The position numbers and the translations under genes were made by a program. Below the pieces are notes generated by a model. It was not told where the DNA came from. It did not search any database and saw only the letters and a list, made by a program, of their open reading frames with translations. Positions 18,929 to 63,373 of a DNA stretch of 63,373 nt are shown here, one piece after another. Numbering within the stretch: the first letter of the stretch is position 1; every line of letters begins with the position of its first letter. The stretch is from a virus (Duplodnaviria > Heunggongvirae > Uroviricota > Caudoviricetes), in IMG/VR virus record IMGVR_UViG_3300028854_000008, positions 1 to 63,373 of that record; one strand, 5' to 3'.

Positions 18929-19688
18929 AAATATTCCTCAATTCTATAAATGCATCATATATTTCAAATTTAACATCATCTACTCGATTGCGATCAGCTT
19001 CAATCATTTTTCCGATTTCAAAAGGACAATGTATAGCAGCATTATAATCAAGAAATTTAAAAATACCTCCGTCATTTTTTAAAGCATTACATTCTTCGAC
19101 GCGACGAGGAATTCCTATAGAATCAGCAACAATCATTCCATGCAACGATGAAGTTACAATTCTTCTGCATGATGCAATTTCTTCAATTACAGTTAAAGGA
19201 TCATTCATTGGGTGTATCACTTTACAAGTAAATTTCTTTGGAATAATATTAAGAAATTTTTCAGCCAATTCAGTATCTTGCCAATGAGGTACTATACCCA
19301 AATCCCATTTTTTTTCTTGGTACTGAATAAGTTCATTTGATAAAATTGCTGGATCACCCAAAGCAAAATTTCCTGGTATATTTTTAGATGACAATGGCCC
19401 GCGCAGGGCCAGAATTTTTATGTCATTAGAACAAGGATTAAATTTTAGTTTTGAAGATTCTCTCAATAATCCAGATCCCAATATGATACCTTTCCAATTT
19501 TCTGGAACATGTTCAAGTATAGACCCAACAGAAATAATATCAGCATTCATAATGGGAACCCATTGAATGTTTTCTAAATAAGCAAATCTAGTCAACAGCA
19601 AAGGAGTTAGCCCATCTCCAAAATTTTCTACTTTCTTCCACCAATATACTTTTGTTTTTTTGTGATTTCTCATCAAATCTCCCAACAA
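18915..19688 (-). CDS. Polysaccharide pyruvyltransferase (ExoV-like)
   Basis: NFGDGLTP, VGSIL, ALRGPLS, GDPAIL, TSSLHGMIVADSIGIP. Confidence 0.8.
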   Translation of the reverse strand: MLGDLMRNHKKTKVYWWKKVENFGDGLTPLLLTRFAYLENIQWVPIMNADIISVGSILEHVPENWKGIILGSGLLRESSKLKFNPCSNDIKILALRGPLSSKNIPGNFALGDPAILSNELIQYQEKKWDLGIVPHWQDTELAEKFLNIIPKKFTCKVIHPMNDPLTVIEEIASCRRIVTSSLHGMIVADSIGIPRRVEECNALKNDGGIFKFLDYNAAIHCPFEIGKMIEADRNRVDDVKFEIYDAFIELRNIYEKY

Positions 19689-19749
19689 TATTTAATCATT
19701 ATATGATTATTTATGTGAATAATCAGATTTTAACTTCATAAATATATGC

Positions 19750-20169
19750 ATGATTGTGAAATTTTATACGTTAATTGATATAACTAAAACAAATGTAACA
19801 AGAAATTTTAAATCGCAGGGATCATTATTGTCTCAGCGAGAATGGGATTTTTTGCGCAATAAGCAACGAAATTGGGAAGTAGTTATACAATTGTTAGGAT
19901 TAAGATTTCAGCCAATGAAAATTTCTGATCCAATAAAATTAATAAATCAAAATTATAATGATTATTCTTTTGGTAATGCTTTTTCTGAAGTAAAAAATTT
20001 ATCTATATGGAAATTTTATTGTAACTATGACATAGAAACATCTATAGATTTTTTAATATCTGATTTCAATGATATTCCAATTATAAGTGGATTGGATGAG
20101 ACGATTACTTTAAATAATTCATGTTTCACTACAATCAATGAAAAAACAAATTTGTTAGTAAAAGTATAA
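19750..20169 (+). CDS. Hypothetical late protein
   Basis: 139-aa ORF after the late motif at 19738. Confidence 0.7.
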   Translation: MIVKFYTLIDITKTNVTRNFKSQGSLLSQREWDFLRNKQRNWEVVIQLLGLRFQPMKISDPIKLINQNYNDYSFGNAFSEVKNLSIWKFYCNYDIETSIDFLISDFNDIPIISGLDETITLNNSCFTTINEKTNLLVKV

Positions 20170-38010: not shown

Positions 38011-41000
38011 TTGAACGATTTTTTAGTTAACCCACACCCATCCCAAGTTACAGTATTTGAAGACAGCTTTTCTGAAGAAGTATGGTCAAATACATATAAA
38101 AATTATAAAGACAAAGATATTAATGATACTTTTAATCGTGTTGCACAAGCAATTGCAAGCGTAGAAAAAACAGAAGATTTAAGAAAAGAATGGGCAGAAA
38201 AATTTTATGATATGATGTGTAATTTTTCTGTCGTTCCTGGTGGAAGAATTTTAGCAAATGCAGGTACAGAATTTCGTGGAACAAGTTTAATTAATTGTTT
38301 TGTTGGTCCAACTCCAAAATATGATTGCGATAGTTTATCTGGAATTTTAGAAGTTTTAAGAAGCCAATCAATTACTTTAAAGAGCGAAGGTGGGTGGGGA
38401 AAGAATTTTTCTTTTATCCGACCAAGAGGAACTTTTATTAAAGGAATTGGTGTTGAAACTCCTGGAGCAGTAAAGTTTATGGAACTATTTGACAAGAGTT
38501 CTGAAATTATTACAGCAGGTTCTGGAAAGAAAGCTTCAAATAAAAAAGCAAAAGGAAAAATAAGAAAAGGGGCGATGATGGGAATTTTGGATATTTCCCA
38601 TCCTGACATTATTGAATTTATTACTATAAAGCAAACTTCCAATAGATTATCTAAATTTAATCTTAGTATAAACTGCTCTGATAAATTTATGGATAAAGTA
38701 TTGTTAGTTAGTAAATTAAAAAAAGAAAGTGGTAGCCAGGAACAAATCGATGAAATAACATGGGATCTAATTTTTCCAGATACAACTTATGAAAAATATA
38801 AAGAAGAATGGTGCGGCGATATTCAAGATTGGCAAGAAAAAAATTATCCAGTAATTGTTTATCAAACAGTAAAAGTAGATTGGTTATGGAACCTTATTAC
38901 TCAATCAACTTATTCAAGAAATGAACCTGGAATTTTATTTTTAGATCGTGCAAATAAATTTAATGAATTAAATTATGCTGAAAAAATATTTGCAAGTAAC
39001 CCATGTGTTACTTTGGATTCATGGGTAACAACAAGTCGCGGAGCAAAACAAGTTAAAGAATTATTGGGAATTCCATTTACTGCTATTGTTGATGGTATTT
39101 GTTGGAATAGTTCTGAAAAGGGATTTTTTGTATCAGGAAATAAGCCTATTTTAAAAATAAGTACAATAAATGGCTATACCTTAAAAGTTACAGAAAATCA
39201 TAAAATAAAAATTTTAAGAAATAATAAAATTGATTGGATTGCTGCTGGAAAATTATCTATTGGTGATCAAATTTTTATTAATAATCATTCGTCAGTAGAT
39301 GTTAAAATATCTGAAAAAAATGATGCTATTGGATATGCGTTAGGATTGCTGGTTGGGGACGGAAATATTAGTGGAAAAAATGCTCATTTATGTTCTTGGG
39401 GAAATACAGAAGGAGTTAAAAATGTTCGTAATAAAGTTATGCAAGAATTGCTTCAATATGCTTCTCCAGCAAAAACTTTTAAAGGATGGCATGAAGTAAA
39501 AGGAAGAAATGAATATCGAATTCAATTTAAGGATTTGCATTCTTATGCAATATCATATGGACTTACTTCATCAAATAAACATGTAAATAAAACAATTGAA
39601 GAAGATATTTATATCAGCAAAGGATTTATTCGTGGGATGTTTGATGCTTATGGGTCTGTTCAAGGAAATAGAGATACAGGTTTGAGTATTCGTCTAAGTC
39701 AAAGCAATTTAGAAGATTTGCAAGCAATTCAACGAATGTTAGTTAGATGGGGAATTGTTTCTACCATATATGAAAACAAGAGAGATGAATGTTTGAAGGA
39801 TATGCCTGATGGAAAAGGTGGAAAAAAAGAATATCTATGTAAAGCAAATCATGAATTGGTATTATCTAAAAGTAATATAGAAAAATATTTAAATATTATT
39901 GGATTTTATGATTCAGATAAAAAAGAAAAATGTGAAAGACTTTTAACTGAATATGTTTATGGATTACATAAAGAAACATATTTAGCAGAAATATCCTCAA
40001 TTGAAAATTTTCCAAATGAAATTGTAGCGGATTGCGAAATCCCTGGAATTAATGCATTTGATTGTAATGGATTGGTAATTTCAAATTGCGGAGAGCAATT
40101 ACTTTCAAATGAAAATATTTGTTGTTTGGGATCTTTAAATCTAACTCAATTTATTAATAAAAATAGAACTGGATTTGATTTACATAAATTAGCGAAATAT
40201 ACAAAATATTTAATAAGATTTTTGGATAATGTAAATGATTATTCAGATGCTCCTCTTCCAGAATACATTAATTCAATGAGAAATAAACGAAGAATTGGCG
40301 CAGGATTAATGGGATGGGGAAGCGCATTATTTATTCTCAAAGTCAAATATGGTTCCAAAGAATCAACAAAGCTAAGAACTGAAATTTTAAAAACTTATAC
40401 ATTGGCTGGTGTTGAAGCGTCATTGGATTTAGCTGATGAAAAAGGAATGTTTAATTTATGTGAGCCAGAAAAACATGCCTTTAGTCCATATTGGGATAAT
40501 ATTGATTTGCCAGAAAATCTTCGTAAAAGAATTCTCAAGAATGGTATTAGAAATTCTTCACTATTTAGTTGCCAACCAACAGGAAATGCTGGTGTAACAG
40601 CTCAGATTGTATCGGGTGGAATTGAGCCCGTATTTATGTCTGAATATATTAGAACAGTTATCGTATCTTCAACGCCGGATCATATTAAAGATGTAACTCC
40701 AAATTGGAATCAAGGAGAATGGGCTGAGACTAATATGTTTAAATTCTCCCAAGAAGGAGATGAGCAAATTTTACGCGGTGTGGATAGTAATGGAGTTGTA
40801 TATAAAATCGATAAAAATAGAGGATTAACAAAAGAAGTTCTATGTCAGGATTATGGAGTTAGATATTTAACTAAATTTGGAGAGTGGAATCCTTCTGCTG
40901 ATTGGGCAGCAACAACTACTTCTTTATCAGTCAAAGATCATTTGGTTGAATTAGAGGGATTTGCAAAATATTTAGATAGCAGTGTATCAAAAACGATTAA

Positions 41001-41682
41001 TATTCCCAATGATTATCTATTTGAAGATTTTCAAAATATATATTTAGATGCATACAATACTGGGTATATCAAAGGATGTACCACATATCGTTCTGGATCA
41101 ATGACTTCTGTTCTTTCAGCAGTTGATCAAAAAAATGATGATATAGATGAAGAAGTTATTTTAGAAGATGTAAAATTGCCTGATAATATGTCTGCTGAAA
41201 TGAAAGTTCTGCATGATCATGAAGGTGATAGTAGTCGTAAATGGTATGTAACGATTAGTTTGAATGAAAATAAAGCACCAGTGGCAATATTTGTTCAAAC
41301 CAATGCAATGGAAAAATCAGTAACAACGAATGATGCTATTGAAAAATTATTTGCGTTGGCTAAAGTAAAAGGTATTCCAGAACAATATATAGAATCAACA
41401 TTTAAAAAATGCAATAATGATTCTAATAGTGTTAAAATTGCTAGAGCAATCGGATTATTATTACGTCATGGAGTAAGAATCAAATATATTGTTGCTGAAA
41501 TAGATAAAGTTGATGGCGTTACTTTTTCAAGTTTTCTATTTCATATTAAAAAGATGCTGGGAAGTTTTGTGAAAGATGGCGAAAAAATTGATGGGGCCAA
41601 ATGCACAGAATGTAATGGTCAACTTGTTTATGAATCAGGGTGCCAGAAATGCCTGCAATGTGGAAATTCAAAATGCGGATGA
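38011..41682 (+). CDS. nrdJ: Class II (B12-dependent) ribonucleotide reductase with intein, C-terminal TSCPD-like domain and Zn ribbon
   Basis: PGGRILANAG, LINCFV, NP-[intein]-CGEQ, CCLGSLNL, RRIGAGLMG, QPTGN, SVSKTIN, KGCTTYR; terminal CxxC...CxxCGxSKCG. Confidence 0.9.
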   Translation: MNDFLVNPHPSQVTVFEDSFSEEVWSNTYKNYKDKDINDTFNRVAQAIASVEKTEDLRKEWAEKFYDMMCNFSVVPGGRILANAGTEFRGTSLINCFVGPTPKYDCDSLSGILEVLRSQSITLKSEGGWGKNFSFIRPRGTFIKGIGVETPGAVKFMELFDKSSEIITAGSGKKASNKKAKGKIRKGAMMGILDISHPDIIEFITIKQTSNRLSKFNLSINCSDKFMDKVLLVSKLKKESGSQEQIDEITWDLIFPDTTYEKYKEEWCGDIQDWQEKNYPVIVYQTVKVDWLWNLITQSTYSRNEPGILFLDRANKFNELNYAEKIFASNPCVTLDSWVTTSRGAKQVKELLGIPFTAIVDGICWNSSEKGFFVSGNKPILKISTINGYTLKVTENHKIKILRNNKIDWIAAGKLSIGDQIFINNHSSVDVKISEKNDAIGYALGLLVGDGNISGKNAHLCSWGNTEGVKNVRNKVMQELLQYASPAKTFKGWHEVKGRNEYRIQFKDLHSYAISYGLTSSNKHVNKTIEEDIYISKGFIRGMFDAYGSVQGNRDTGLSIRLSQSNLEDLQAIQRMLVRWGIVSTIYENKRDECLKDMPDGKGGKKEYLCKANHELVLSKSNIEKYLNIIGFYDSDKKEKCERLLTEYVYGLHKETYLAEISSIENFPNEIVADCEIPGINAFDCNGLVISNCGEQLLSNENICCLGSLNLTQFINKNRTGFDLHKLAKYTKYLIRFLDNVNDYSDAPLPEYINSMRNKRRIGAGLMGWGSALFILKVKYGSKESTKLRTEILKTYTLAGVEASLDLADEKGMFNLCEPEKHAFSPYWDNIDLPENLRKRILKNGIRNSSLFSCQPTGNAGVTAQIVSGGIEPVFMSEYIRTVIVSSTPDHIKDVTPNWNQGEWAETNMFKFSQEGDEQILRGVDSNGVVYKIDKNRGLTKEVLCQDYGVRYLTKFGEWNPSADWAATTTSLSVKDHLVELEGFAKYLDSSVSKTINIPNDYLFEDFQNIYLDAYNTGYIKGCTTYRSGSMTSVLSAVDQKNDDIDEEVILEDVKLPDNMSAEMKVLHDHEGDSSRKWYVTISLNENKAPVAIFVQTNAMEKSVTTNDAIEKLFALAKVKGIPEQYIESTFKKCNNDSNSVKIARAIGLLLRHGVRIKYIVAEIDKVDGVTFSSFLFHIKKMLGSFVKDGEKIDGAKCTECNGQLVYESGCQKCLQCGNSKCG
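39004..40086 (+). mobile_element. Intein (361 aa) with LAGLIDADG homing-endonuclease domain inserted at the RNR active-site NPCxE motif
   Basis: Starts CVTLDSW, block B VTENH, LGLLVGDG and GMFDAYG motifs, ends VISN before extein Cys. Confidence 0.92.
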
Positions 41683-59791: not shown

Positions 59792-59870
59792 ATGATTAAG
59801 TGGGAGATAAATATTTTAAAATAATTTTGCATTTATTAAAAATTTACAAATTCTCAGGATAAATAAATAT

Positions 59871-60044
59871 ATGAAGAGCATGATTACAACTGATACAATT
59901 TCTAAAAATATTTTACGAGAAGTGAAATATGATGCTACAGGAAATGTTATTACTAATGGAGAATTTATTACAGTGAAAGACGGCGGGCAAATATTAAATC
60001 AAAATAAATTTGCAGCCGCTGATAAATTCGGAGTATATTTGTAA
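59871..60044 (+). CDS. Small late protein, 57 aa (not in ORF track)
   Basis: ATAAATA at 59859; followed by a terminator. Confidence 0.5.
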   Translation: MKSMITTDTISKNILREVKYDATGNVITNGEFITVKDGGQILNQNKFAAADKFGVYL

Positions 60045-60067
60045 ACGCCAGGATTCAAAAAGATTTA

Positions 60068-60095
60068 AAAGATCCTGGCGAAAGTCAGGATCTTT
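60068..60095 (+). terminator. Intrinsic terminator hairpin
   Basis: AAAGATCCTGGC-GAAA-GTCAGGATCTTT. Confidence 0.75.
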
Positions 60096-60204
60096 CATTT
60101 GCAGTAAAGAATAGTTATCCGTTCCGCTTCACGTTAACCGAGCACTCTTTATAAAGAGAATGGAAAATATCAAAGATAACTATAATGTAGTAAAAATGTT
60201 TTAT

Positions 60205-60279
60205 GGGGCAGTAGCTCAGAGGGAGAGCGCTGCGTTAGCATCGCAGAGGTCGAGATTTCAAAATTCTCCTGCTCCACCA
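60205..60279 (+). tRNA. tRNA-Ala, anticodon AGC
   Basis: G3:U70; stem CTGCG/CGCAG, loop TT-AGC-AT; encoded CCA. Confidence 0.9.
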
Positions 60280-60353
60280 TAAAGTTTTTGCTTGGGGTGG
60301 TTACTTATTTGACAGATTTATATAAACGAATTAAAGATTGGAATGAAAAATAT

Positions 60354-60425
60354 GGGGAATAAGTGTTGATAGGAGCACGATAGATTCGCAATTTATAAGG
60401 GTGAGGGCAGTTCTCACATTCTCCA
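60354..60425 (+). tRNA. tRNA-Ala, anticodon CGC, non-canonical T-loop (GGCAGTT)
   Basis: GGGGAAT/ATTCTCC with G3:U70; loop TT-CGC-AA; no encoded CCA. Confidence 0.7.
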
Positions 60426-60426
60426 C

Positions 60427-60487
60427 AAGTTATTGAAAATAAAGCACTTATTTTTTACTTGACAAATGATCTAGAATTTAGTATTAT
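60427..60487 (+). promoter_or_regulatory. Conserved upstream element plus sigma70-like promoter for tRNA-Ala(TGC)
   Basis: AAGTTATTGAAAATAAAGCACTTA; TTGACA(60459)-N17-TATTAT. Confidence 0.75.
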
Positions 60488-60506
60488 TAAAGAGTAGCAA
60501 GAATAT

Positions 60507-60599
60507 GGGCTATGGGGCTGCTAGGGTGGCCACTGGTTTTGCACTCCAGAATCATCGAGAAATCGATACAGCGGGATTCAAATTCCCGATAGTCCACCA
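60507..60599 (+). tRNA. tRNA-Ala, anticodon TGC, with long class II variable arm
   Basis: GGGCTAT/ATAGTCC with G3:U70; loop TT-TGC-AC; V-arm ATCGA-GAAA-TCGAT; CCA. Confidence 0.85.
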
Positions 60600-60610
60600 A
60601 AAAATTTAGG

Positions 60611-60639
60611 TTGACAAACAAAGTAAAGTTTGATAGTAT
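60611..60639 (+). promoter_or_regulatory. sigma70-like promoter driving the large ncRNA and downstream tRNAs
   Basis: TTGACA-N17-TAGTAT, followed by AAAGAGTAGCAAGAA as at 60489. Confidence 0.75.
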
Positions 60640-60645
60640 AAAAGA

Positions 60646-61056
60646 GTAGCAAGAAATTGGTGCAACACAGCACGAAGTAGCACTCCAAATGCAGCGAATG
60701 AGAATTCGTTCAACAGATGGACAGACACATAATGTTTACTTGTAAAAGTGTTCTGACCTTAACGTGCCTGCGATAGTGAGTTGAATGGTGAAATGCCAGA
60801 AGAAAGTTCACCAGCCAATGAAGTTTAAAAATCGCTTTAGTAGCGATCTGATAGTAAATCAGTTCAGGAAGTATTTGACAATTGAAGAGAATATTGCAGA
60901 GCAACAGTGCTCTGTTTGAATATGAAAGTTACACCCGCCTACGTGGCAGTCCTAACTGAGACAGCATCACGACTTCAGGTGGCACGATGGTTGTAACGGG
61001 GCAAGCTTTCAGACTAATTAACAATTAGCGGCTGCGTACTGCCCGTAAAGTACGCA
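60646..61056 (+). ncRNA. Putative large (~400 nt) structured non-coding RNA
   Basis: Own promoter, no credible ORF, GC-richer than flanks, at least 10 helices including nested long-range stems; ends before an AAAGTTT spacer. Confidence 0.75.
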
Positions 61057-61076
61057 TAAAGTTTTGAAGTAAATAT

Positions 61077-61162
61077 GCCGTAATGGTGGAACGGAATACA
61101 CTTTGGACTTAAAATCCAACGCTCTTATGAGATTGAGGGTTCAAATCCCTCTTACGGCACCA
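61077..61162 (+). tRNA. tRNA-Leu(TAA)
   Basis: TTGGA-CTTAAAA-TCCAA, long V-arm, CCA. Confidence 0.92.
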
Positions 61163-61173
61163 AAAAGTTTAGT

Positions 61174-61291
61174 AGATCAATAGCTCAATTGGTTAGAGCA
61201 ACGAGATTAACAGATCAAGTCGTAAAGCCACAAGCCTAAGATACTTGAAGTCACTCGTCGGTTGAAGGTTCGAGTCCTTCTTGATTTACTA
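61174..61291 (+). tRNA. tRNA body with a 41-nt insertion in the anticodon loop (anticodon ambiguous, possibly TAA)
   Basis: AGATCAA/TTGATTT acceptor, canonical D- and T-arms, stem ACGAG/CTCGT enclosing 48 nt. Confidence 0.75.
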
Positions 61292-61300
61292 GAAAAGTTT

Positions 61301-61419
61301 AACTCTGAGTCGCAAGACTATCGAAGTGACTAGGAAACTAGCTGGCATAACGAAATATTATGTTGGACCTTGAGAGTGACCACAGATGAATCTCAGTGAA
61401 AGCTAGAGATTTCAGAGTT
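61301..61419 (+). ncRNA. Putative ~120-nt multi-hairpin RNA
   Basis: Closing stem AACTCTGA/TCAGAGTT; hairpins AGTC-GCAA-GACT, CTAG-GAAA-CTAG, GCATAA/TTATGT, AATCTC/GAGATT; flanked by AAAGTTT spacers. Confidence 0.65.
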
Positions 61420-61429
61420 ATAAAGTTTT

Positions 61430-61506
61430 GCCGCGTTCGTATAACGGATTATTATGCTCCGCCTTTAACGGAATCGATATGGGTTCAAATCCCATGCGCG
61501 GCACCA
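61430..61506 (+). tRNA. tRNA-Lys(TTT), atypical C33
   Basis: TCCG/CGGA stem, loop CC-TTT-AA, A73, CCA. Confidence 0.75.
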
Positions 61507-61520
61507 AAGTTTAGATGTAT

Positions 61521-61597
61521 GCGTTCGTCGTATAGCGGCTTATTATACTTGTCTCTTAAACAAGCTGACGTGAGTTCAAATCTCACCGAACGCACCA
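61521..61597 (+). tRNA. tRNA-Lys(CTT)
   Basis: CTTGT-CTCTTAA-ACAAG, CCA. Confidence 0.92.
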
Positions 61598-61613
61598 AAA
61601 GTTTTATAGTTAT

Positions 61614-61730
61614 GAGATTGTAGCTCAATTGGTAGAGCAACGCCCTTTTTTCGGGATGCTTCTTTGAGAGAGCATTCGATGGATGCTTTCAAAAAGGCGC
61701 AGGTTGTGGGTTCGATTCCCACCAGTCTCA
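61614..61730 (+). tRNA. tRNA-Lys(TTT)-like body with a 44-nt insertion in the anticodon loop
   Basis: GAGATTG/CAGTCTC acceptor; CGCC-CTTTT...AA-GGCG enclosing 51 nt. Confidence 0.78.
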
Positions 61731-61785
61731 CAAAGATTTGAAATTAAAACCATCTTCGCATAAATAAAGATGGAGGATCAATTAA

Positions 61786-62400
61786 ATGCCATTAGTAAAT
61801 TGTCCAAAATGTAATACTGAATTTGAGAATAAAGGAAAATGGGGAACCAAAAAATTTTGTAGTAGAAAATGTGCCAATTCAAAAGATCGGCCACAAGAGT
61901 TAAGAGATAGAGTTTCTAAAAAATTAAAAGGAAGAATTGGAAAAAGTATTTTTCTTTCTCCAGAGAAACTCATAAGTCGTAATCTTAAACTTAGAAAAAC
62001 TTGGGATTTAAAATATGAGAATATTCCATTTGAAGAACTTTCTTGGGATTTACAAAGATTGCGAGTAATAAAAGAACAAAATAATTCTTGCGGAAAATGT
62101 GAAATTACTGAATGGTTTGAAAATCCAATAACTTTAGAAGTTGATCATATAGATGGAAACCGAAAGAATAATTGTAGAGAAAATTTAATTGCTATTTGTC
62201 CAAATTGTCATAGTATTACTACAACATGGCGCGGAAGAAATAGAAAAACTGTGGATTATAAAACTGATGAAGAAATTTTAAATGTTATTTTACAAACTGA
62301 AAATATTCATCAAGCATTAAAATTTCTAAATATGGCATGTCGAGGAGCCAATTATAAAAGATTACAACAGTTAATGGAAAAAAATAATATCTCTTACTAA
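61786..62400 (+). CDS. HNH endonuclease embedded in the tRNA cluster
   Basis: N-terminal CPKC...FCSRKC; CGKC...LEVDHIDGNRKNNCRENLIAICPNCH. Confidence 0.9.
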   Translation: MPLVNCPKCNTEFENKGKWGTKKFCSRKCANSKDRPQELRDRVSKKLKGRIGKSIFLSPEKLISRNLKLRKTWDLKYENIPFEELSWDLQRLRVIKEQNNSCGKCEITEWFENPITLEVDHIDGNRKNNCRENLIAICPNCHSITTTWRGRNRKTVDYKTDEEILNVILQTENIHQALKFLNMACRGANYKRLQQLMEKNNISY

Positions 62401-62406
62401 ATTTAT

Positions 62407-62511
62407 AGCCGTATAGCTCAATTGGTTCAGAGCATTCCCCTTATTTAGGGCCTGTGCATCAGACCTTAAATAAGGGAAAGGTTGATGGTTCGATCCCATC
62501 TACGGCTACCA
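62407..62511 (+). tRNA. tRNA-Ile-like body (anticodon TAT or AAT) with a 27-nt insertion in the anticodon loop
   Basis: AGCCGTA/TACGGCT acceptor, TTCCC/GGGAA stem enclosing 34 nt, CCA. Confidence 0.8.
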
Positions 62512-62526
62512 CAAAGTTTAAATGTT

Positions 62527-62586
62527 GGCTTGTAGCATAATTGGCAATGTGTGACCCTGTTAAGGTCAAAGATGATGGTCCAGCCA
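62527..62586 (+). pseudogene. Degenerate tRNA-Asn(GTT) lacking most of the T-arm
   Basis: TGACC-CTGTTAA-GGTCA intact; T-loop and 3' T-stem missing. Confidence 0.65.
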
Positions 62587-62597
62587 AAATTTAAAGT

Positions 62598-62716
62598 TTC
62601 GCTGTAGGGAAAATATACCCCGCTGCATGAGGCAGAAAGATATTGAGGGGCTGGTCAACGGCTATAGACGCCCAGTGAGTAAATATTTGATGGTGCAAAT
62701 CCATCCGGCGATACCA
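62598..62716 (+). ncRNA. tRNA-like RNA with a ~55-nt variable-region insertion; identity unclear
   Basis: TCGCTG/CGGCGA acceptor, GGG/CCC D-stem, CTGC/GCAG arm, T-arm GATGG-TGCAAAT-CCATC, A-CCA. Confidence 0.6.
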
Positions 62717-62723
62717 ATTTTAT

Positions 62724-62858
62724 GGGATGGTAGCTCAGTAGAAGAGCAATGGCTATGAGGGGTAGTCTAGCGACGGTTAGATGAGACTCAAGTGCAAAAG
62801 TCATACGTCGAGAAGTCTGAAGGCCAAGGACATTGTGCAAATCCCTCTCATCCCATCA
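62724..62858 (+). ncRNA. tRNA-like RNA with a ~60-nt insertion in the anticodon arm and a degenerate T-stem
   Basis: GGGATGG/TCATCCC acceptor, canonical D-arm, TGGCT/GGCCA stem enclosing a long insert. Confidence 0.55.
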
Positions 62859-62930
62859 ATTTTAAAGAAAAGATGTTGGGTTCAATGGTCCGACTTCAAA
62901 CTAACGTTAAGTCAAGTTTGAATAGTTTAA

Positions 62931-63004
62931 GCGGGGATAGTTTAAATAGTAGAATATCTGAGTTTCCGCTCAGAAGATGGGTTGCAAGTACCCTAACCGC
63001 TCCA
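62931..63004 (+). tRNA. Degenerate tRNA-Gly(TCC)
   Basis: GCG...CGC-T-CCA Gly identity; two acceptor mismatches; 6-nt anticodon loop. Confidence 0.6.
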
Positions 63005-63015
63005 ATTTTATATAT

Positions 63016-63100
63016 GCGGGAGAAGCCTACTTGGTATGGCACTGGTCTTCCAAACCAGAGATGAAAATCGCTGCGAGTTCAAATCTCGTCTCCCGCTCCA
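63016..63100 (+). tRNA. tRNA-Gly(TCC) with extended variable arm
   Basis: CTGGT-CTTCCAA-ACCAG, U73, V-region GAT-GAAA-ATC hairpin, CCA. Confidence 0.88.
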
Positions 63101-63135
63101 TATTTATACATATGGAATAAAGGAAGAAAATTAAA

Positions 63136-63309
63136 ATGAAATATTGGTGTAAAAATTGTGAACATCTTCTGCCATTGAAGAACAATGAAAGAACAGAAAA
63201 TTTCAAAGAATGGTGGATAGAAAATCGAGAACAATTCAGAGAACTGCATCTCAATGGAGAGTGTGAAATAAAAACAACTCAGATACAGAAGGTGAATTTA
63301 TATGCATAA
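63136..63309 (+). CDS. Small hypothetical protein, 57 aa (not in ORF track)
   Basis: SD AAGGA; MKYWCKNC. Confidence 0.5.
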   Translation: MKYWCKNCEHLLPLKNNERTENFKEWWIENREQFRELHLNGECEIKTTQIQKVNLYA

Positions 63310-63373
63310 ACTTTTGTTTTTCTTAGCATTTGTTATAATTGTATTTGTGGTGCATATGTTGAAGTGTAAATAA

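Follow-up and report, generated by a model that had tools for sequence, protein, structure and literature searches.

To our knowledge, textbooks grant bacteria self-splicing (group I) tRNA introns only. These elements, like the introns of archaeal and eukaryal tRNAs, typically sit in the anticodon loop and are removed before decoding. Stem-loops are also removed by protein from another class of structural RNA: the intervening sequences of bacterial 23S rRNA are extra stem-loops, patchily distributed among relatives, which RNase III excises, and the resulting rRNA fragments stay unligated and yet work. The rejoining of a broken anticodon loop is known from bacteriophage T4, where PrrC, as defence damage, cuts the uninterrupted host tRNA-Lys at 33/34, Pnkp heals the ends and Rnl1 seals them. 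The closest published case to the one described here comes from Lak megaphages, in which tRNA introns termed 'enigmatic' interrupt the anticodon loop; they do not belong to group I, make the genes over-long and are patchy among related phages, and no mechanism is known for their splicing (Devoto et al. 2019, PMC6784885). The ends produced by RNase III are 3'-OH and 5'-phosphate. The enzyme requires a cut-to-loop distance of about 11 bp, losing 50-fold in reactivity at 10 bp, and excises a 28-nt stem-loop from R1.1[WC], a T7-derived model substrate of the E. coli enzyme (Pertzev and Nicholson 2006, PMC1540722). Our literature search, with limited reach into subscription journals, found no paper on tRNA splicing by RNase III plus a ligase or on hairpin mini-introns of phages.

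Here we describe a tRNA gene from an uncultured large peat-bog phage in which the anticodon loop is interrupted by a short hairpin. The phage is represented by an IMG/VR contig of 127,373 bp (33% GC, CheckV completeness ~49%), the first 63,373 nucleotides of which are referred to as the window. The contig uses the standard genetic code and carries ~33 tRNA genes, with a dense cluster around the tRNA-Ile(UAU) gene studied, together with genes of a large lytic phage: a DnaB-type helicase, a NAD-dependent ligase, an intein-bearing ribonucleotide reductase, NAMPT and an NMNAT-Nudix protein. The reductase large subunit, with its intein and a LAGLIDADG domain, is encoded at 38011-41682 (+) of the window. 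Our preferred reading, to which we assign a probability of roughly 0.55 from sequence comparison, is that the tRNA-Ile(UAU) is interrupted by a 27-nt hairpin mini-intron that is removed by proteins, with a host RNase III cut and sealing by a phage Rnl1-type ligase as the favoured means.

The gene lies at 62407-62511 on the plus strand and matches the tRNA family of Rfam (RF00005) with 58.3 bits, against a gathering score of 29. The match spans model positions 1-71, with 30 extra nucleotides that all fall within the anticodon loop, and CCA is encoded at 62509-62511. ARAGORN in its intron mode called a tRNA-Ile(tat) with a 27-nt intron, and in its default mode made no call for 62407-62511. The 5' exon (62407-62444, +), delimited by Rfam, ARAGORN -i and the alignment of alleles, comprises the acceptor 5' strand, the D arm, the 5' strand of the anticodon stem, C32, U33 and the anticodon UAU at 62442-62444; its end was drawn at register 36/37, registers 34/35 and 35/36 giving the identical product. 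The 3' exon (62472-62511, +), placed by Rfam and the alignment, runs from A37 and A38 through the 3' strand of the anticodon stem, the variable loop, the T arm and the acceptor 3' strand to the discriminator A73 and the CCA.

Removal in silico of 62445-62471 left a 78-nt RNA whose minimum free energy fold is a perfect cloverleaf (-24.2 kcal/mol), much like the folds of L044 and L005, the nearest relatives without the insert. Direct reading of the spliced tRNA gave A73, C4-G69, U12-A23, C29-G41, A37, A38 and UAU in a 7-nt loop. The six elements other than the anticodon are what we take to be the identity set of E. coli IleRS, the isoleucine identity elements of that organism being reportedly the subject of work by Nureki and co-workers in 1994. 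The exons differ from L044 by four stem changes (3-70, 7-66, 49-65 and 50-64), and since all four are compensated, with zero stem mismatches, the body appears to have been kept as a tRNA. By ARAGORN it is the only clear AUA decoder on the 127-kb contig, in whose long ORFs AUA is used at 18.9 per 1000 codons and accounts for 23% of isoleucine codons. The gene is thus functional-looking, and its product is a predicted isoleucine tRNA for AUA. A sequence-only reading had proposed a tRNA-Ile-like gene at this place, and the Rfam score, the encoded CCA and the isoleucine identity pairs bear this out. The weight it laid on the rarity of UAU turned out to be misplaced: tRNA-Ile(tat) was called by ARAGORN in six of the seven fetched phage loci with tRNA arrays, so this anticodon is nothing unusual in a large phage.

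Insert-free tRNA-Ile(UAU) genes with an identical anticodon arm are present in three other uncultured phages, two of them (L005/L041 and L044) found by searching for the predicted spliced anticodon arm. L005 is an IMG/VR phage, and L041 is the same gene on a JGI contig; L044 is a short metagenome contig in which the spacer style between tRNAs is like that of the studied phage. The third, L006, is the closest fetched relative. It is syntenic, with a NAMPT 85% identical and a downstream ORF common to both, and at the corresponding place it has an insert-free tRNA-Ile(UAU) beside an insert-free tRNA-Lys(UUU). Alignment to the insert-free alleles opened a single gap of exactly 27 nt (62445-62471), which identifies a clean presence/absence insert and predicts the mature loop CUUAUAA. 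Local repeats at the insert site account for three equivalent gap positions, the deletion of 27 nt in registers 34/35, 35/36 and 36/37 always yielding CUUAUAA and CUAAUAA arising solely from a fourth. Of the two loops first proposed for the processed RNA, UAU therefore stood and AAU was rejected, as the latter needs the fourth register, no relative matches it and all the insert-free alleles read CTTATAA.

The search for further carriers was extended to several collections. Exact and gapped patterns (5' exon, 3' exon, arm plus gap) retrieved no insert-bearing relative from viral contigs, and the ten loci matched there by a hairpin-arm pattern included none within a tRNA. A metagenome scan retrieved the studied phage again (as L042), along with two alleles that lack the insert and two chance matches, with no other insert carrier and no insert-free allele of the studied phage itself. 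A pattern scan of genome contigs for insert carriers gave no match, blastn against cultured phages nothing useful, and no further hairpin-interrupted tRNA was seen among ~150 tRNAs in six other NAMPT-bearing phage loci. The protein encoded just upstream of the tRNA-Ile gene, an HNH endonuclease, is found in identical form on 19 contigs, and the ten of these that were read, all from other samples, match the window at 100% identity wherever they overlap it. With this identity, and with no diverged insert carrier found, the sequences offer no covariation for the hairpin itself. Independent assemblies of the same phage end in or just after the tRNA-Ile gene, at 62423 (L038), 62449 (L034/L036) and 62544 (L032/L035/L039), the second of these positions falling mid-hairpin; a coverage drop at the palindrome and hidden population variation are both possible causes.

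The intervening hairpin (62445-62471, +), defined by the clean indel, the folds and a shuffle test, has ten rungs, nine pairs plus one C/A mismatch, and a 5-nt loop, UGCAU, at 62455-62459; A35 and U36 are the pairing partners of its last two bases. In the mature loop, U33-A38 (UUAUAA) form a self-complementary stretch, and the insert is an imperfect palindrome in its own right, so that with the hairpin at the centre of this stretch the two make one continuous long helix. In the folds and on direct reading, the resulting rod (62441-62473, +) pairs U33-U36 and intron bases 1-6 (62441-62450) with intron bases 20-27 and A37-A38 (62464-62473). The 34 nt between the strands of the anticodon stem (62440-62473) thereby form ten contiguous pairs, nine Watson-Crick and one G-U, followed by the C/A mismatch and by CUG/CAG capped by UGCAU. 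The initial description of an 11-bp loop helix (10 Watson-Crick pairs plus one G-U) holds for these ten pairs and for the CUG-UGCAU-CAG cap; the eleventh, in which C32 would pair with the first G on the 3' side of the stem, is in competition with the last canonical pair of the anticodon stem. A slipped 13-bp register was calculated at -22.2 kcal/mol, compared with -20.5 kcal/mol for the canonical 5-bp stem with a bulged C32 and 10 bp, a gap of 1.7 kcal/mol, and both registers are predicted to bury the anticodon UAU.

This fold is beyond chance. The whole RNA folds with z = -4.98, none of 200 shuffles being equally stable, and when only the 27 inserted bases were shuffled the observed arm energy was reached in 3 of 5000 cases. 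No second copy of the hairpin exists within the window. As had been claimed from the letters, no bulge-helix-bulge was found in the rod, which is continuous save for C32 and the C/A mismatch, its sole unpaired residues.

The proposal of a masked tRNA in need of processing fits the insert-free alleles of three phages, the cloverleaf obtained on splicing and the concealment of the anticodon in the rod. We rate the chance that the tRNA-Ile is spliced at all as slightly better than even. Removal would have to be the work of proteins. For self-splicing, 27 nt are far too few, and a bulge-helix-bulge is absent. In the primary transcript, the hairpin would stack on the self-complementary loop bases and lock the anticodon in a rod of roughly 18 bp, and the unspliced RNA could then not decode, and probably not be charged, until the hairpin was gone. 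A double-strand-specific endonuclease, most simply the RNase III of the host, would cleave both strands at the foot of the hairpin, 3' of U36 and 5' of A37, the two cuts being offset so as to leave a 2-nt 3' overhang. This double cut would free the 27-nt stem-loop and leave a tRNA body whose anticodon loop has a nick between a 3'-OH and a 5'-phosphate. Such a nick could be sealed by a T4 Rnl1-type ligase, of which the phage encodes a representative. RNase III together with the phage ligase may be the best-fitting specific route, and we advance it tentatively.

By geometry only, register 36/37 is the one in which U36 pairs with intron base 26 and A37 with U34, so that the cuts would leave a 2-nt 3' overhang and at the same time restore the mature loop correctly; the two other registers (34/35 and 35/36) would leave blunt ends or a 2-nt 5' overhang. 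RNase III, which the initial description had named for a processing assay, would be consistent with this geometry. The distance from cut to loop is 10 rungs (nine pairs and the C/A mismatch), at or just under the 11-bp minimum, and the 5-nt loop has U and U as its end bases. The four hairpin pairs beside the cut are U-A, U-A, A-U and G-U, with neither G-C nor C-G at proximal-box positions 2 and 4, where such pairs inhibit RNase III. Between the predicted cuts lie A35-U and U36-A, with no G-C pair, whereas the two corresponding pairs of RNase III sites used in vivo in E. coli usually include one (PMC6212723); by this analogy, the composition of the inter-cut pairs would count against the RNase III route.

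A close biochemical parallel, T7 R1.1[WC]/uR1.1, has ~11 bp from cut to loop, compared with the 10 rungs here; it shares with the locus the A-U rich pairs at the scissile bond and the 2-nt 3' overhang, a predicted one in the present case, and its 28-nt stem-loop product compares with the 27 nt predicted here. Such sites, however, lie in mRNA or rRNA spacers and their ends are not rejoined, whereas a tRNA would require ligation; the phage hairpin moreover has a C/A mismatch and a 5-nt loop, and its cleavage is predicted from geometry. The 23S rRNA intervening sequences are likewise patchy stem-loops of a structural RNA gene, but a tRNA, once its anticodon loop is cut, has to be ligated. In T4, a phage ligase does seal an anticodon-loop break, and homologues of Pnkp and Rnl1 are encoded here; there, the break is damage to a host tRNA at 33/34, while the step proposed here would be programmed, at 36/37 and in the phage's own tRNA. 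The Lak introns resemble the insert in being non-ribozyme, located in the anticodon loop of a phage tRNA and absent from related alleles. They differ in that the example in Table S6 of PMC6784885 is a 93-nt insert in a tRNA-Tyr, as opposed to a 27-nt hairpin, and one Lak insert looks like a tRNA; the peat-bog phage, with its 33% GC and standard code, is unrelated.

As to the enzymes, the phage encodes a T4-type Pnkp with kinase and HAD phosphatase domains, a Rnl1-like ligase (contig 105128-106228; best PDB match T4 Rnl1, 2C5U, E 4.5e-16) and a Rnl5-like ligase of the Naegleria type (contig 107201-108298). T4 also has Rnl1 and Pnkp, as does the relative G001, in which this insert is absent; the ligases are permissive and not specific evidence. 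No RNase III was found in the three phage fragments searched, and EndA and RtcB (PF01974, PF01139) are absent from the studied contig, which covers ~49% of the genome. A further frame, of the Rnl2 type, lies at contig ~81585-82244 (L001 1378-2037), ~1 kb upstream of a second tRNA cluster. It contains a single in-frame TAG and may represent a pseudogene, a gene expressed by read-through, or one that is split.

The tRNA-Ile is not the only interrupted tRNA of the contig. A tRNA-Lys(UUU) at 61614-61731 (+), recognised by Rfam, ARAGORN -i and its fold, is interrupted by 44 nt at the corresponding point of its loop, after U36; it shows a C32 bulge and U33-A38 and U34-A37 pairs as in tRNA-Ile, followed by a three-way junction with no long rod. 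The tRNA at 61174-61291 (+; 52.2 bits) has an anticodon-loop insert of 41-48 nt and C at position 37 in every register; ARAGORN calls it Ile(tat), which is doubtful, UGU (Thr) or UAA being equally possible. Beyond the window, a tRNA-Asn(GUU) with a 50-nt insert is located at contig 67295-67420 and has a counterpart in L006 at 19684-19818, where the insert is of equal length and its junctions are conserved; the stem that closes it covaries fully, and a T-arm-like hairpin lies inside it. Cutting the loop of this tRNA at 36/37 would give the alternative reading His(GUG). The Asn insert is 'tRNA-shaped' and of a different class from the Ile hairpin; the inserts of this genome are of more than one kind. 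Its conservation and covariation in L006 argue that interrupted tRNAs are maintained under structural selection in the lineage.

Several neighbouring genes are aberrant. Directly after the tRNA-Ile, at 62526-62587 (+), is a tRNA-like gene (Rfam 31.5 bits) with ~6 nt in place of the T arm and a loop CUGUUAA (GUU). It is followed at 62598-62716 and 62724-62858 (+) by CCA- or UCA-ended, tRNA-framed RNAs with very large internal insertions, the folds of which contain no normal anticodon arm.

The variety of these inserts bears on which enzyme might act. Those of 41-50 nt and longer, branched or tRNA-shaped, are unlike RNase III substrates, and this counts against the RNase III route, one shared enzyme of a different kind being more economical. 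The splicing endonuclease of eukaryotes, for instance, measures from the mature domain of the tRNA. By the same principle, a so far unknown endonuclease of phage or host could recognise the body of the tRNA and cleave the anticodon loop at a set position, leaving Pnkp and Rnl1 to heal and seal; the helix would then be incidental. One such enzyme would suffice for about five tRNAs of the genome whose inserts, of very different size and shape, are all at the anticodon. With both healing and sealing enzymes at hand, either end chemistry would be repairable, and half of the genome (CheckV 49%) is unseen. Set against this, no candidate nuclease was found on the fragment, EndA is absent from it, and the match of the Ile insert in size and stagger to an RNase III product would be left as a coincidence. 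We judge such an enzyme unlikely, if worth keeping in view.

The main rival denies splicing altogether and starts from the neighbouring gene. The free-standing HNH endonuclease (204 aa, 61786-62400, +, Pfam HNH_3) starts 55 nt after the interrupted tRNA-Lys and ends 6 nt before the tRNA-Ile, and L006 has neither this gene nor the Lys and Ile inserts that flank it. Homologues occur within tRNA clusters of Eneladusvirus jumbo phages, directly after interrupted tRNAs of 121-122 nt and different design, and in the T4-like phage ACG-C40, where the homologue (L049 1899-2507) ends 6 nt before an uninterrupted tRNA. The family is, by its genomic setting, a resident of tRNA clusters, and the stop codon 6 nt before a tRNA both here and in ACG-C40 points to a conserved habit of insertion at the 5' edge of tRNA genes. 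The idea that the family is specific to interrupted tRNAs was rejected, since ACG-C40 has the same arrangement with intact tRNAs.

In the Eneladusvirus phages, which have been cultured on Yersinia and Erwinia, tRNA genes of 114-126 nt were located at 170-283, 993-1118 and 2003-2123 of L047 and at 394-509 and 2043-2164 of L048, and they are annotated as pseudo, undetermined, or Lys and Phe. Their inserts sit between the D arm and the anticodon arm and have in common a hairpin of the type GAUUC-loop-GAAUC and then a motif that resembles ACAGCA and in some copies reads ACGGCA or GCAGCA. One of these interrupted tRNAs is directly upstream of an HNH homologue. As the phages are in culture, their interrupted tRNAs are testable.

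On the rival account, the insert is never removed, so that the gene is disabled and its RNA plays no part in decoding. The palindromic insertion of 27 bp would be an event at the DNA level, perhaps kept because it breaks a homing target site of the HNH enzyme, or perhaps just recent and neutral. The proximity of the HNH gene, the state of L006 and the company of HNH homologues and tRNA clusters elsewhere, in Eneladusvirus right beside interrupted tRNAs, all favour it, as does the fact that bacteria have no known means of excising an insert of this kind. The cluster moreover contains several defective-looking tRNA-like genes, and this abundance of aberrant neighbours raises the prior for decay. 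The exons, however, are without decay, with perfect stems and the isoleucine identity pairs in place, and the gene is the sole AUA decoder seen in an AT-rich genome in which AUA is frequent. A random insertion exactly at the anticodon in several tRNAs is itself unlikely, the Asn insert is conserved with covariation, and ACG-C40 has the same HNH arrangement without any insert. On balance we consider a disabled gene improbable. The insert may still protect the tRNA-Ile gene from the HNH enzyme at the DNA level, as in partnerships of introns and endonucleases, a link that is only suggestive. Such protection leaves the need for a solution at the RNA level if the tRNA-Ile is used.

We regard as very unlikely that the unspliced RNA is functional as it stands, as a rod-shaped tRNA mimic that would act as a decoy, drawing off anticodon nucleases of the host or defence proteins that bind tRNA, or as a latent reserve tRNA. 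A double-stranded anticodon region would resist loop-specific nucleases, the acceptor end with its CCA is kept, and phage tRNAs are known to counter defences that target tRNA (PMC10264068, PMC11464382); but a decoy has no need for intact isoleucine identity pairs or a precisely restorable loop, and the insert, confined to one phage population, brings the idea no comparative support. The classical introns, for which the position in the anticodon loop would be typical, are strongly disfavoured: a group I intron was rejected on the grounds that 27 nt cannot hold a P3-P9 core, that in each of the three registers the last base of the insert is U or A, never the terminal G of that class, and that no Rfam intron match was obtained at E <= 1 in 59800-63373, and an archaeal-type intron spliced by EndA and RtcB on the grounds that the rod is continuous, without the two 3-nt bulges separated by a 4-bp helix, and that both proteins are absent from the fragment.

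Should the insert never be removed, the locus would be of narrower interest, as a case of a tRNA gene given up, or kept masked, next to a homing endonuclease. In the protein-only route that we tentatively favour, host RNase III would excise the hairpin and a phage Rnl1-type ligase would rejoin the loop. If the tRNA is spliced in this manner, it would represent a third, enzyme-driven route of tRNA splicing, a route without known precedent among bacteria and their viruses, assembled from two enzymes long studied for other reasons. A housekeeping role would fall to the RNA ligases and Pnkp of phages, ligases of 'tRNA repair' being also ligases of splicing. The AUA-decoding tRNA would mature only where RNase III and a ligase are both present, which would place a maturation checkpoint on a heavily used codon. 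Genes of this kind are missed by standard bacterial-mode tRNA finders, as by default ARAGORN in this case, so the tRNA repertoires of phages, and the analyses of codon compensation built on them, are undercounted.
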